Shown one piece after another: positions 335 to 17,982 of a stretch of 21,467 nucleotides of DNA. A program made the position numbers and the translations under genes. Origin of the DNA: Escherichia phage vB_EcoS-611R1; the sequence record ON470586.1; one strand, 5' to 3'. Positions within the stretch are counted from its first letter, which is position 1; each line of letters starts with the position of its first letter. Under the pieces are notes generated by a model that worked only from the letters and a program-made list of their open reading frames with translations, ran no database searches and was not told where the DNA came from.

Positions 335-3300
335 TCAGGCACTGCATAATCCTCCGTCCCGACGTGATGACTGCATAATTGACACAACCCTGCTGTCGAT
401 CAGATCCACCAGTCCCCTGGCTGAGCGCGCATCTATCTCGCCATTGCTCCCTTGATTCTGAATGCTGATGTGATACACGGGAGAATAAACAAATCCACCG
501 CCACCATTCACATTTCCAATGGCCCTGACCCCAAGAGAGCCGTCCGCTGCCCGTGTCAGTGGCATGATTGCTTCAGGCCCGGCCTCGCCCATCAGCCCGG
601 CACCTTTCGCAAAAGCAAAATACGTCGGGGTATCCACAATGGTGTTACTGTAAGCACTCAGATTTGCCGATGTATAAACACCACCTTTTGCGTTTGCCAC
701 TGCACCGGAAAGCCAGTCGCCGACTGTACCAAGCCATCCTCCGGCACCGGACATGCTTTTGGAAAGTGACTTCAGCCCGTTAACGATGGCAGCGTTCATC
801 AGAATTTTTGAAACTTCCTGGAGAATTGAACTCCCCCAGTTTCTCCAGTCCACAACATTTCCGGCCAGTGCATCGGAAATATTTGATACCAGTCCGTCCA
901 TAGTGGAAACGACAGCATCTGCCGCCTGCGAAGCATAATCGGTGGCACTGTCTGCCCAGTTGGTCAGCCCCTCCTGGAGTCCTGCATTCCAGTTATTACG
1001 TAAAGCATCGGCCTTTGCATAATAATCCTGCTGATCGCTGAGACGCTCTTCCAGATATTTTTCATTCAGAGATTTTTCCTGTTTCCACAGGGCTTCTTCA
1101 ATTTCTCCGGCCTGATACTGTCTCAGCAGCTCGTTATTTTTCTGCTCAAACTCCTGCCGGATGCTCCACATTTCCTGAAGTCGTTCACGCATCCGTGAGC
1201 CTTCACCATATCCCAGTAACTGAGCCTCATTTGATGCTCTGACACTGGCATTACTGTCCGCCAGACTGCTCTCATACGCAGCAAGCTGCTCACGAATCTT
1301 TTTCTGGTCGATGAGTGCTGCATTCTGCAAAAGCGTTTTTTTCTGCGCTTCTGACAGGGTTGATAATTCGCCCTGGCTGACCTGATATTTCATCTTAGCC
1401 AGTTCAGTATTCTGCCCTGCCAGTGCTATTTGCTCTTTTTGCTGTTTAATCAGTTGCTTATAAGTATCTTCTATTTTTTCCGCTTCGGTCTTTTTATGCG
1501 CTTTGGGTTTATTTGCCTGGTTATTTCGCCATGCATCCAGTGAGTTATTTATATAATTCAGTCTTGCTGTCTGATACGCCTCTCCCACAAAGCCGAGATC
1601 ATCCGCAGCATAACCCAGGCGGGCACGCTCACGAGCTTCCCCCTTCAGGCGGGACAGAGCCAGTTCGCGCTCGCTGTTATTCAGTGCGGTCTGCTGTTTA
1701 TCATCCAGGGTTGCCTGTGGTAGCCGTAACGGTACATTCACCAGCCCCTGTCGCTGCTGAAGTAATTCATTACCGAGCCCGAGAAGGCGATTAAACTCGG
1801 TATGCTGCCCATTCATGATCAACAGGGACTGATACGCTTTGTTTTGTTCCGCTGCCTGTTGACGGATCAACGCCACCCGTCGCTCCTCCAGCCCGGCAAG
1901 CACATCCTGAATGGATTGCGCTTTGCCCTGCATTTGAGTGAGGCGAGACTGTTCAACTGCCAGTTGATTTGTTGCTTCTGCAAGCCCTTCTGTGACAGTT
2001 TTTACCGACGTCATGTGGTTAATCATAAAACCGTTATCGGTTGTCCAGCCCGGGTTTGCCAGCACATACTGATAGCCAGCAATTTTTTCCTGTAAGGATT
2101 TAATCTTACTTTTCTGCTCGTCAATTAACCTGTTTTGCTCCTTCAGTGCCTGTCGCGTCTTTTCCTCATTATCTGACGCTTCAGGAAGCGACATTGCCGA
2201 CGTTTTCTGGCGAATTTCGTCGATTGTTGCGGCATACTGTCGTGCAGATTCTCTGGCCTGCTCCTGATTCTGATACATCGTGTACCAGGCCGCAGCCCCC
2301 AGCATGACGAGTCCCGGCACACCACCAACCAGCCCCAGCGCGCCACTTAATAAACGACTCCCCACTGACGTAACATTATTCAGCGTTGTCTGTGCCGCTG
2401 TTCTGGCCGCAATATTACGGGTAAGTGACACCTGGGCAGCTGTCAGCTTCGCTTCTGCTGCGGCCTGCCTTTCGGTACCGCGAGCAGCAACAACCGCCTG
2501 TTGCGCACGATAAACCGCCGCACGCGCCCTGGCGGTTGCTATCTGTGTCCCCCGAAGTTGCACTTCAGCAAGAGCCACTTCGTTTCTGGCTGCAGTAATT
2601 AATCCGGCAGTTGCAGATCCAGCAGACGACGCCATATTGCCAAAATATCGGGCTACCCCGACGGCAACCAGAGCACCAGCAGCGGTTGCCACGGTGTCAA
2701 TATTGCCTGCAATACCATTCAGCACACCGGAGAGCGTCTTCGTCACTCCGCTTGCCTCGTTCGCACCACCAACCCAGGCCATAAAGGCGTTTTCAACTTT
2801 GGTTGCAGAGGATGAAACCGTATCAGGCATTGCTGCATATTCATCACGCAACGCCCCAAGCTGACTAATCAGTGCAGGAACAACCTTATCAGCGGTCAGT
2901 TTTCCGTTATCCGCCATGGCCTTCAGATCCTTACGGGCAACCCCCATTCCCGCAGCCAGCGCACGAATAACACGATCGCCGTTCTCATTCACCGAGTTAA
3001 ACTCTTCACCGCGCAGCACTCCCTGCGCCAGTGCCTGACTGAACTGCGTGATCACCGAACTGGCTTCTGCTGTACTGGCACCGGATAATTTCAGGCCCGT
3101 GGAGATCGCCTCGGTGACTTTCAGTACCTCCTCAGAACTGTAACCATACTCCCGCATGGAAGCTGCAGAACGGGCAAAAAGGCTGGCGTTATCAGAAAAC
3201 GCCGTCCCCGTTCTCTGGCTGATCGCCATTAATTCACGCTGTGATGACTGAAAATCATCACTGGACTGTGAGGCCTGCTTCAGACGGGCATTTACTGAAT

Positions 3301-15439: not shown

Positions 15440-15445
15440 GCATGT

Positions 15446-15475
15446 AAAAAGGCCCCAACACATGTGCGTGGGGCC
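15446..15475 (-). terminator. minus-strand intrinsic terminator between the tRNA cluster and the holin
   Basis: Minus-strand RNA: stem GGCCCCA/UGGGGCC around an 11-nt loop, followed by UUUUU (plus-strand AAAAA at 15446-15450). Confidence 0.45.
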
Positions 15476-15675
15476 TGAGAGTATACATGGTTTCAGTCAA
15501 CTGCATGGTGCCGTGTGCCTCCCGGTGAATTCAGTACCAGCACCTGAATCCGCGATTATCCCATATACCTACTCGCTGATTGCCCCTCCGCACAGGGGGA
15601 TTCACCATGCCAGTTTCTTTTGACAAACTCCCCGCAAAACAGACAACTGTCAACCGTCTGAATTGTGAGACATTT

Positions 15676-15700
15676 AAAAAAAGGCCCGCAAAAGCGAGCC
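15676..15700 (-). terminator. minus-strand intrinsic terminator after the tRNA cluster
   Basis: Minus-strand RNA: GGCUCGC-UUUU-GCGGGCC with one U-G pair, followed by U7 (plus-strand A run 15676-15682), about 15 nt downstream of the 3' end of tRNA-Arg(UCU). Confidence 0.55.
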
Positions 15701-15714
15701 GGGAAAAATAAGTC

Positions 15715-15791
15715 TGGCGCGTTGTACTGGATTCGAACCAGTGACCGATTGCTTAGAAGGCAATTGCTCTGTCCGGTTGAGCTAACAACGC
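15715..15791 (-). tRNA. tRNA-Arg (anticodon UCU)
   Basis: Hand-folded 77-nt cloverleaf on the minus strand: acceptor GCGTTGT/ACAACGC, D stem GCTC/GAGC, anticodon stem ATTGC/GCAAT with loop CTTCTAA, T stem ACTGG/CCAGT with loop TTCGAAT, then an encoded CCA. Confidence 0.8.
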
Positions 15792-15804
15792 AGGGTACAG
15801 ATAA

Positions 15805-15881
15805 TGGACCGCCATCGAGGACTCGAACCCCGCGCAACCAGCTTCGAAGGCTGGCGCTCTATCATGATGAGCTAATGGCGG
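15805..15881 (-). tRNA. tRNA-Arg (anticodon UCG by hand fold)
   Basis: 77-nt cloverleaf: acceptor CCGCCAT/ATGGCGG, D stem GCTC/GAGC, anticodon stem CCAGC/GCTGG with loop CTTCGAA, T loop TTCGAGT, encoded CCA. The D loop lacks the usual GG, so the call needs tRNAscan-SE confirmation. Confidence 0.65.
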
Positions 15882-15888
15882 TATGTGA

Positions 15889-15965
15889 TGGTGGCCCTTG
15901 CTGGATTTGAACCAGCGACCTGGCGATTATAACTCGCTCTCATCATTTAGCTAAAATGGCTGGGG
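15889..15965 (-). tRNA. tRNA-like element, ileZ/ileX-like, possibly degenerate (pseudo-tRNA or atypical tRNA-Ile UAU)
   Basis: The 3' half matches tRNA-Ile2 (ileX) as I recall it (..GGTCGCTGGTTCAAATCCAGCAAGGGCCACCA). The anticodon arm is about 4 nt short relative to ileX (GAGTTATAATCGCC) and the acceptor 5' strand (AGCCATT) mispairs at two positions. Confidence 0.4.
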
Positions 15966-16085
15966 GAGTGATGATACATCAGTCACATTAAACATGAAAA
16001 CAAATCGTTTTAGGTGAAATACAAAAAGAATAGTGATTAAATATCAAATGGATATGCTTTAAATCTAACCACAGTAAGGACGAGT

Positions 16086-17030
16086 ATGATTTTTCTCAAG
16101 AATGGCGAAAGTTTTATTCGCGTGAATGACTGGGCAGAAATTCAGGCGAGAGAGTCTTACTATCCCAAATTAGAGTTAAATGATCAGCAACTCTCTGACG
16201 TTTTTGGTTACTACGATGACCTACCAGAGGAAATTCCATGTGGAAAATCAAATTGCCGCAAAGGGCATAAAAAGGGATTTCTGGTAGTTACGAAAGAAGG
16301 ATTTGAAACGAATATCGGCCATGTATGTGGAACTAATGTTTTTGGTATAGCATTTGATAATTTAGCAATAGAACTTTGCAGAAAAGCAGATTTCCATCGC
16401 TTACTTACCGCACTTAAAGAGGCAAAAGATGATATTTTTAGCTATTACAAACTCAAAGCCAAAATCGAATCTGGGCGTCCATCACTAACTGAGGTTGCTC
16501 ATAGAATACTTGACATGAAAGACCCTAAAATCATCGGGCGTGCGGCTTATCAAACATTGAAAAAGATGGCTGCTTCTGGTGATGGGCGTGTTTTCCGCTC
16601 AAGATTAAAAAATACAGAAGAGCTAGAACTGGACGAAATTATGTCCCAGAAGCAAACAAGCGACTCAGCTCCAAAAGTTAACAACAAAAACAAAACCGTA
16701 AATGAACTTATTGGGGTAATACAATACCCTGAATGCTTGCTGAATGATTATGACATTGCTCTTCTTTATGAAAGAGATATAAAAATGGTTCTGGAAAAAT
16801 TAAACAAATGTACCCCAGATGAATTGACTGAAAGAGAGGTGTTGTCTTTTGGAATAAAGGTTTCAAGATTAAGAGAACGCTTTAACTTTGTTCAGGAACG
16901 CTTAGAAAAATCCAGGGTTTTTGCAACAAGAGAAAACCTTAAACCTTTACGTGCATTACTTAACATTCAGAAATCTGTAAGCAATAAAGACAAATTACTA
17001 TTTAAGAAATTTATGGAAAATTTACCATAA
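16086..17030 (+). CDS. uncharacterized protein (314 aa), AT-rich cargo gene in the Q-to-lysis moron hotspot
   Basis: Opposite strand to every flanking phage gene, with RBS AAGGA 7 nt before the ATG and a hairpin terminator right after the stop. Hand-counted GC is about 38-42% against about 52% in a capsid gene sample. The N-terminus has a Cys/His cluster (PCGKSNCRKGHKKG...NIGHVCG); the rest is Lys/Glu-rich and likely helical. I recognise no family. Confidence 0.75.
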   Translation: MIFLKNGESFIRVNDWAEIQARESYYPKLELNDQQLSDVFGYYDDLPEEIPCGKSNCRKGHKKGFLVVTKEGFETNIGHVCGTNVFGIAFDNLAIELCRKADFHRLLTALKEAKDDIFSYYKLKAKIESGRPSLTEVAHRILDMKDPKIIGRAAYQTLKKMAASGDGRVFRSRLKNTEELELDEIMSQKQTSDSAPKVNNKNKTVNELIGVIQYPECLLNDYDIALLYERDIKMVLEKLNKCTPDELTEREVLSFGIKVSRLRERFNFVQERLEKSRVFATRENLKPLRALLNIQKSVSNKDKLLFKKFMENLP

Positions 17031-17032
17031 TT

Positions 17033-17056
17033 AAAAAACCCGCTATAAAGCGGGTT
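17033..17056 (-). terminator. tR'-like intrinsic terminator (bidirectional hairpin)
   Basis: Stem AACCCGCT/AGCGGGTT (17037-17044 with 17049-17056), loop ATAA. On the minus strand it is followed by U6, a strong terminator for transcripts from the promoter downstream of Q. On the plus strand it follows the 314-aa gene's stop with a weaker T-rich tail. Confidence 0.6.
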
Positions 17057-17097
17057 CCGTGTTAATTTTTATATTGGCGCTAAACCCCATAATTAAA

Positions 17098-17166: not shown

Positions 17167-17982
17167 TCAGTAACTCGTTGCCTTCTCAAATTCTCTAGCC
17201 GCATGCCGCTCACCTTGATGCAGGATATCAATCAATTTTTCATAGAATGGTTTCCAATTGCGCGACCATGAAGACTGGTGCAGATCGGGAATGTATATTT
17301 GAATAGCTCGATGAACATTAGCTGATTTGATAGATACGAATCCCTTTCCACTACAACGCTCGCAGATTTTAAACACTGGCACACCACGCTCGCTTGTGGC
17401 TTTGCGGTCCAGTACCTCTCCCTTTCCACCACAACGACACCTGGCACTTATCACTCCCTTCCCTTTACATACATCGCAAACGACTGGTACAACTTCCGTT
17501 ACCTCTGTCCATTTTTCCCAGTCTGACGGTCGAACAGCACGGGAGCGACTGGCCCAATATGGTGCTTTACCCCATGGGTATGAAACCTTACGAATGACCT
17601 GCTTACGGGGTGTTAGTCCGGTACCACTGCAACTATGGCATGTTACGCTGGTGGCCGCCGATCGGGAATACTCAGCAAAAGCAAACTGAGCCAGTACCAG
17701 CATACACCAGCCAAATTCACCACCAGCTGCTTTACGCACATTCTTCGGTGCAATTTCCATCGCGTGACGCGCCAGCGCCTGGACTGCCATCTGCTCATCA
17801 GTCTTGCTGATACCGGCCTTCCCGAAGAAGGCCGCCAGGCCAAACCGCTCACGATTACTGGTGGTACCAATAGCCGCCATAACATCGGTGCCTGTAAGAC
17901 GTTCCGGAGAGGTTCCTTTCACATCGTCGCCGATATACATTCCCTGAGGACTGAAGTATTTTAGCGATGCCTCAAGCTTCAT
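17167..17982 (-). CDS. Q-like late antiterminator candidate with four CxxCxGxG zinc-finger repeats (QuuQ/YdfT-like)
   Basis: 271-aa ORF with the motifs CHSCSGTG, CDVCKGKG, CRCGGKG and CERCSGKG. It sits immediately upstream of the PR'/tR'-like unit and the lysis genes, and its start overlaps the stop of the preceding gene. The family name is from memory. Confidence 0.55.
   Translation of the reverse strand: MKLEASLKYFSPQGMYIGDDVKGTSPERLTGTDVMAAIGTTSNRERFGLAAFFGKAGISKTDEQMAVQALARHAMEIAPKNVRKAAGGEFGWCMLVLAQFAFAEYSRSAATSVTCHSCSGTGLTPRKQVIRKVSYPWGKAPYWASRSRAVRPSDWEKWTEVTEVVPVVCDVCKGKGVISARCRCGGKGEVLDRKATSERGVPVFKICERCSGKGFVSIKSANVHRAIQIYIPDLHQSSWSRNWKPFYEKLIDILHQGERHAAREFEKATSY

Follow-up and report, generated by a model that had tools for sequence, protein, structure and literature searches.

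A probable chimeric ileZ pseudogene in the ileZ-argN-argO tRNA island of a lambdoid prophage of Escherichia coli

Results

Organization of the locus

The window, by which we mean the whole 21,467-nt stretch of DNA analysed here, is a lambdoid prophage of E. coli and is 100% identical to E. coli strain 19AR1724. Read along the minus strand, it contains a helicase, a toprim protein, a hypothetical protein and the antiterminator Q, followed by an antisense 314-aa open reading frame (ORF), the tRNA region, a small RNA (sRNA) of the STnc100 family, a holin, a lysozyme, Rz, terminase, and the head and tail genes. Q lies upstream of the tRNA region, and the lysis cassette (holin, lysozyme and Rz) lies downstream of it. 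In this island of 19AR1724, the PGAP annotation lists two tRNA-Arg genes and no other tRNA feature. The features considered below are as follows.

17167..17982, minus strand: antiterminator Q, 271 aa (Pfam PF03589, 171 bits; PGAP "antitermination protein")
17127-17098, minus strand: late promoter-like TTGACT-18-TATCAT found by scan, presumed pR'
17058-17035, minus strand: terminator-like hairpin found by scan just downstream of Q, presumed tR'
16086..17030, plus strand: antisense AT-rich cargo ORF, 314 aa, 945 bp, 36% GC (phrog_7003; PHROGs 2.4e-118)
15971..16000, minus strand: promoter-like TTTTCA-18-TATCAT found by consensus scan, ending 9 nt before the first base of psi-ileZ
15889..15961, minus strand: psi-ileZ, a putative chimeric tRNA-Ile2 remnant (no ARAGORN call; Rfam 32.6 bits; no cloverleaf; alignments)
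15926-15961, minus strand: 5' part of psi-ileZ, apparently an old pseudogene allele
15889-15925, minus strand: 3' part of psi-ileZ including CCA, equal to intact ileZ
15805..15881, minus strand: argN, tRNA-Arg(UCG) (ARAGORN; Rfam RF00005, 54.1 bits; cloverleaf as the minimum free energy (MFE) fold; aligns with annotated argN)
15715..15791, minus strand: argO, tRNA-Arg(UCU), reading AGA/AGG (ARAGORN; Rfam RF00005, 70.1 bits; aligns with annotated argO)
15683..15700, minus strand: terminator-like hairpin with a T run found by scan directly after argO
15440-15639, minus strand: STnc100-family sRNA (RF02076, 128.9 bits), in the interval from the argO terminator to the holin gene

Two of these features deserve a remark of their own. 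The hairpin at 17035-17058 also follows closely on the stop codon of the plus-strand cargo ORF and may be a bidirectional terminator for convergent transcripts. The STnc100 match fills the slot that is occupied by stx in Stx phages, and PGAP annotates this region on the opposite strand as a pseudo "hypothetical protein". The STnc100 sRNA is known from prophages and is related to PasD (bioRxiv 10.64898/2026.05.13.724894). In a relative with the CAT allele of psi-ileZ described below (L135, E. coli 10671), STnc100 is adjoined by an AgvB/AsxR-type anti-sRNA (3116-3175, minus strand, 56.2 bits), a feature for which the window gave no match.

Two intact tRNA-Arg genes in a Stx-phage island

In the 21.5 kb of the window, ARAGORN called two tRNA genes and no more, both of them tRNA-Arg on the minus strand. 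An earlier note, made from the sequence alone, had described a tRNA cluster here, with one Arg anticodon read as UCU and another, by hand folding, as UCG; ARAGORN and Rfam recover the cluster at those positions on the minus strand, and ARAGORN assigns tct and tcg to the two cloverleaves. Both argN and argO are intact, with the cloverleaf and an encoded CCA, and their presumed role is to add to the host tRNAs for rare Arg codons while the late genes are expressed. The D loop of argN (15860-15868, minus strand) reads AUCAUGAUA, in which one G of the conserved GG is replaced by U. The same loop, AUCAUGAUA, is found in the genome identical to the window, while other alleles read AGG, GGG or GUG; the G-to-U change is lineage-specific and may mean that constraint on argN, too, has begun to relax.

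The ileZ-argN-argO island was first described in phage 933W. In Stx2 phages, depositors have annotated ileZ-argN-argO directly 5' of stx2A, and the window island shares 92-94% nucleotide identity with these annotated islands. In the alignments, the order of an Ile-like element, Arg(UCG) and Arg(UCU) on the late-transcript strand agrees with that of the annotated islands, and the spacers of 7 and 13 nt are equal to those of the reference islands. Close relatives of the window module lie directly upstream of stxA2. Compared with the islands of Stx2a_WGPS8 (AP012540) and Lahn2, which share its order, spacing, orientation and Q-lysis position, the window also conserves the upstream promoter-like pair and the terminator after argO. 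It differs from them in that its ileZ appears dead, an antisense cargo gene stands between Q and the island, and the island is followed by the STnc100-family sRNA region and the holin gene instead of stx. The earlier note had remarked that the order and location mirror the tRNA island of Stx phages; judged from these alignments, the likeness can be put more strongly, in that the window island is the Stx-phage ileZ-argN-argO island by homology and not by mere resemblance. We also considered phi467 as an ancestral context, and its Q is 98.5% identical to that of the window, yet it has no tRNA island upstream of stx, and the comparison was uninformative.

The third element is an ileZ homologue without a cloverleaf

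The element that precedes argN, here called psi-ileZ, was aligned to intact ileZ (GGCCCTTTAGCTCAGTGGTGAGAGCGAGCGACTCATAATCGCCAGGTCGCTGGTTCAAATCCAGCAAGGGCCACCA). Its last 37 nt, from the 3' strand of the anticodon stem to CCA, are identical to intact ileZ, so that the T arm (GCUGG-UUCAAAU-CCAGC), A73 and CCA are the same in both. The 3' 32 nt, an exact copy of the ileZ 3' half, occur once in the window, with 0 occurrences expected in shuffled sequences. The 5' 36 nt carry all the lesions. In the acceptor strand, G1 is changed to A, an A is inserted and a C is changed to T; in the D arm, C13 is changed to A and two D-loop Gs are changed to A; and 4 nt are deleted within the repeat GAGCGAGCGA. 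In addition, the anticodon loop carries C32>G and C34>U, and consequently it reads GUUAUAA with the anticodon UAU, where intact ileZ reads CUCAUAA with CAU.

The acceptor stem of psi-ileZ has 5/7 canonical pairs in either register, one of which works only if an additional base separates the acceptor stem from the D stem. A13 stands opposite G22 as a mismatch. The deletion in GAGCGAGCGA leaves one GAGCGA to serve as both the 3' strand of the D stem and the 5' strand of the anticodon stem, and a D stem and a 5-bp anticodon stem are not both formed. The MFE structure of psi-ileZ (-19.4 kcal/mol, z = -1.4 against shuffles) and its centroid are both without a cloverleaf, in comparison with an MFE of -33.5 kcal/mol (z = -4.0) for intact ileZ. 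When the acceptor stem was forced, psi-ileZ gave a D-arm-less three-arm structure at -16.4 kcal/mol. A three-arm fold of this D-arm-less type, with a 7-nt GUUAUAA loop (U33, UAU, A37 and A38), lies ~2 kcal/mol above the MFE. Such a fold is not impossible, yet it is predicted to be far weaker than that of a normal tRNA.

ARAGORN did not call psi-ileZ in the window, nor in any of the 11/11 scanned relatives with the same 5' half. Rfam RF00005 matches 15892-15960 at 32.6 bits (E = 0.002), which clears the gathering score of 29 by a small margin and speaks against the pseudogene reading. The scores are graded: intact ileZ scores 72.5 and 68.4, a chimera with a CAT anticodon 36.0 and the window copy 32.6 bits, and the Stx2e/i-type copy of ileZ gave no Rfam tRNA match at E<=1. 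The Rfam alignment of psi-ileZ shows the loop GUUAUAA, 4 nt missing from the 5' strand of the anticodon stem, one mismatch in the D stem and two acceptor pairs that are non-canonical. A third element with an Ile2-like 3' half, a shortened anticodon arm and two acceptor mismatches, as the earlier note had put it, is what this alignment and the exact 3' match both contain. No tool called the element a normal tRNA with a CAU anticodon.

The E. coli tRNA-Ile2 genes, ileX and ileY, encode a CAU anticodon that is converted to lysidine by TilS. Intact phage ileZ is like this host tRNA in its CAU loop CUCAUAA and in overall sequence, and psi-ileZ is like it in the 3' half. Psi-ileZ departs from the host tRNA in its anticodon, UAU for CAU, in the mismatches of its acceptor stem and in the truncation of either the D or the anticodon arm. 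As far as the alignments and predicted folds can tell, the third element is a tRNA-Ile pseudogene homologous to ileZ.

The two halves of psi-ileZ probably have different histories

The earlier note had offered a decaying ileZ as one of two readings, and although the gene does seem to be dead, simple decay in place is not how it appears to have arisen. Against intact ileZ of Stx2a_WGPS8, the window matches at 29/40 positions in the 5' part and 37/37 in the 3' part (Fisher p ~0.0005). Against the Stx2e/i-type copy the pattern is reversed, with 36/36 matches in the 5' part and 27/37 in the 3' part (Fisher p ~0.001). When the Stx2e/i-type copy and intact ileZ are compared with each other, the differences are 11/40 and 10/37, that is, the two halves are equally diverged (p = 1.0).

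Among 5,426 complete E. coli genomes, the damaged 5' half with its flank was found in 22, which fall into three tiers. Five of the 22 are the same as the window, with the TAT allele. Eleven differ solely in having kept CTCATAA, and hence the CAT allele. The remaining six are Stx2e/i-type prophages (STEC276, STEC306 to STEC308, and two CFIA strains), in which the damaged ileZ lies upstream of stxA2, the 3' half is degraded too (TCGCC>TTGTT and AGGTC>CACTT, with T-stem pairing broken), argN is dead as well and the entire ileZ copy is ~27% diverged. The TAT anticodon is already present in this fully decayed lineage. The prophages of STEC276 and STEC308 have the damaged ileZ 5' half, the Q gene and the cargo gene in common with the window; they differ in that ileZ and argN are dead along their full length in the STEC276 type, whereas in the window just the 5' half of ileZ is. 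In stx2i prophages, "tRNA-pseudo-tRNA-Arg" variants have been reported (PMC13641118).

We also scanned IMG/VR and a metagenome collection, which yielded nine further loci with the damaged 5' half. What follows this unchanged 5' half varies, on its 3' side or further downstream, among four or more contexts: argN-argO (of which two allele types occur), argN-argO-stx2 with a dead argN, Arg(tct)-Gly(tcc), and a variant in the T loop. In a search of deposited phage genomes in distant mode, the damaged 5' half with its flank gave no match, and for this reason the allele is known solely from prophages and IMG/VR contigs. A mosaic map of the window places 18510-15679 with SCU-106 at 99.3% and 15955-14000 with FDAARGOS_1288, which has an intact ileZ, at 97.6%. 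The homology to intact-ileZ prophages begins inside psi-ileZ.

These observations bear directly on the possibility that a single copy of ileZ gathered all its lesions without recombination, its 3' half being spared by chance or by a constraint of its own. Some details of the damage would suit such a course. The 4-nt deletion sits in the GAGCGAGCGA direct repeat, as is typical of slippage; the six other changes in the 5' half all go to A/T (five GC>AT and the inserted A), as mutation bias predicts; and two further changes in the anticodon loop, C32>G and C34>U, complete the set. The distribution of the damage does not suit it: the 11/40 differences in the 5' part against 0/37 in the 3' part (p ~0.0005), the reciprocal pattern against the Stx2e-type copy, the identical 5' half on several 3' halves and downstream tRNA sets, and the start of the intact-ileZ homology within the element all argue for a junction. 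We consider decay in place improbable.

The reading that we prefer, and hold to be very probable, is that the region is an ileZ-argN-argO island with argN and argO intact and a dead ileZ, the latter being a recombinant with a dead 5' part and an intact 3' part. In this recombinant reading, the damaged 5' half would be an old pseudogene and part of the neighbouring Q/cargo module. Recombination with a phage bearing an intact island would have replaced everything 3' of the anticodon loop in the window lineage, and it would thereby have restored argN and argO and left ileZ as a chimera with a dead 5' half and an intact 3' half. We infer the direction of these events from the divergence patterns alone.

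Across the loci, the damaged 5' half was invariant in 17/17 cases, and the upstream flank differs from the Stx2e-type copy at ~7/50 positions. The invariance could be a hint of constraint, and it is also expected from hitch-hiking with the cargo module, which is 96-100% identical. Selection on the 5' half was considered and set aside, since zero differences in 36 nt are not significant when the adjacent cargo gene is 96-100% identical in the same loci.

Islands of this type frequently lose or exchange members

With the ileZ 3' half as bait, we surveyed 126 islands. The full ileZ-argN-argO trio was present in 61 of them, and 29 had no callable argN, an arrangement known from phiP27, where ileZ and argO are annotated. 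Fifteen contained ileZ-Lys(ttt)-Thr(tgt)-Gly(tcc), 16 had other combinations, and five, all of the window's lineage, had no callable ileZ. Loss of a member is common in the island, and a missing ileZ is thus no bar to island membership. Psi-ileZ followed by Arg(tct)-Gly(tcc), as well as ileZ-Lys-Thr-Gly, also occurs in IMG/VR loci (L009, L017, L139, L143 and others). The island is a modular tRNA cassette that is frequently reshuffled.

The phiP27 island (AJ298298) shows the opposite state to the window, with argN dead and ileZ intact, whereas the window has an intact argN and an ileZ with a dead 5' part. The dead argN of the 29/126 islands (L137, which is phiP27, 2572-2672; L133, ~2625-2715) keeps its acceptor, D and T arms but has, in place of the normal anticodon arm, a 6-bp stem with two G-U pairs and an 11-nt loop, and it is 4 nt longer. 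It gave no ARAGORN or Rfam call and is unannotated in phiP27. This odd form is widely conserved.

Predicted transcription of the island

The TTTTCA-18-TATCAT pair upstream of psi-ileZ is the positional homologue of a promoter conserved in the island. We compared 111 intact islands with 35 distinct upstream flanks. At -15..-10 from the ileZ +1, TATTAT was present in 102/111 and TATCAT in 3/111, and the -38..-33 hexamer was TTGCAG, TTGCAA or TTGCGG. A "pS tRNA promoter" has been mentioned in the q-stx2 interval (PMC2858043). At the other end, the terminator-like hairpin after argO is conserved by alignment in phiP27, STEC276 and Stx2a_WGPS8. From this arrangement, transcription would start at the conserved promoter of the island itself or reach the island by read-through with Q antitermination, and it would terminate at the hairpin that follows argO. 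Psi-ileZ would then form the first ~75 nt of an argN-argO precursor, and it probably persists for no other reason than its position, with the promoter on one side and argN on the other.

The cargo gene and the question of an AUA decoder

The cargo ORF between Q/pR' and the tRNA island belongs to phrog_7003, a family of unknown function, and it gave no Pfam, PADLOC, NCBIfam or PDB sequence match. Its N-terminus contains a Cys/His-rich motif (CGKSNCRKGH...HVCG). It may represent a moron or a defence gene not yet characterised. Distant homologues aside, the gene was absent from deposited phages, and in E. coli it occurs together with psi-ileZ in the same 22/5,426 genomes. It was present in 17/17 loci with the damaged half, at 95.5-100% amino-acid identity, and loci with the CAT allele and loci with the TAT allele encode one and the same cargo protein (100% amino-acid identity).

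The over-use of AGA and AUA that the earlier note had seen in this AT-rich ORF is borne out by the counts. AGA occurs at 28.6 per 1000 codons against 5.5 in the rest of the window (p = 1.7e-4), accounting for 9/20 Arg codons, and AUA at 19.0 against 6.3 per 1000 (p = 0.02). The ORF has zero CGA or CGG, the codons that argN would read. The bias is partly due to its 36% GC content. A link between argO and the AGA codons of the cargo gene is possible. A tRNA supply for the AUA codons of the cargo gene is not supported, given the AT-richness of the gene, its location on the other strand and its constant association with the dead AUA decoder.

The second reading of the earlier note, an unusual AUA decoder, is not supported. 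According to this reading, the third element is a functional, reduced tRNA-Ile whose UAU reads AUA without TilS lysidine and serves the AUA-rich cargo. Several features could be cited for it: GUUAUAA retains U33, UAU, A37 and A38, and the T arm, A73 and CCA are intact; the three-arm fold lies near the MFE (~2 kcal/mol); and AUA is three times as frequent in the cargo gene as elsewhere in the window, and psi-ileZ accompanies that gene in every case. The structure itself argues against the decoder, in that ARAGORN called no copy, the acceptor stem has 5/7 canonical pairs and the D and anticodon stems compete for the single GAGCGA. E. coli IleRS uses identity elements in the D stem and the acceptor, which are disrupted in psi-ileZ, and E. 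coli already has ileX and ileY. The relatives of psi-ileZ point the same way. The Stx2e/i copy has lost the 3' strand of the anticodon stem and T-stem pairing and has no Rfam match; because it decayed further, there appears to be no purifying selection on structure. By contrast, intact ileZ has a compensatory stem change at two loci (GCGGC/ACCGC). CAT and TAT alleles coexist on the same cargo background. Since TAT is already present in the dead Stx2e/i allele, the UAU anticodon is taken as a relic and not as a new adaptation. We give the functional decoder very little credence.

The same low probability applies to the broader proposal that psi-ileZ is transcribed and active, whether as a TilS-independent, D-arm-less UAU decoder of AUA or as a leader or decoy. 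In the leader/decoy version, a possibility in its own right, the psi-ileZ transcript would affect the maturation of argN and argO or sequester a tRNA-binding host factor. Either role, if true, would explain the invariance of the 5' half in 17 loci, but we think it very doubtful that psi-ileZ has one.

The least credible account, and one that we regard as extremely improbable, is that psi-ileZ is an integration scar, i.e., a partial tRNA copy at the att site of an integrative element that carried the cargo gene in. In its favour, integration into tRNA genes classically leaves an intact tRNA 3' half beside foreign DNA, and the cargo gene is AT-rich and foreign-looking. Against it, the 5' half is a diverged ileZ homologue (29/40) and not unrelated sequence, the ~1.1-kb cargo segment has no integrase, the position of the upstream promoter is conserved, and in the window the cargo gene is not flanked by another partial ileZ copy. 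The ileZ 3' half occurs once in the window, so that there is no att duplication, and on this last ground we rejected the account.

Discussion

The ileZ-argN-argO island and the decay of its members are already known, and the chimeric allele of the window is a minor variant. If our reading is right, psi-ileZ would provide a clean mosaic-recombination junction inside a conserved tRNA gene, with one dead 5' half and several 3' partners. In annotations, the third element is better given as a tRNA-Ile pseudogene than as a tRNA, its marginal Rfam score notwithstanding. The locus also gives reason for caution in a wider sense: rare-codon tRNAs that are co-located with a cargo gene rich in rare codons need not form a functional pair with it, because here the AUA-rich cargo is always linked to what seems to be a dead AUA decoder.
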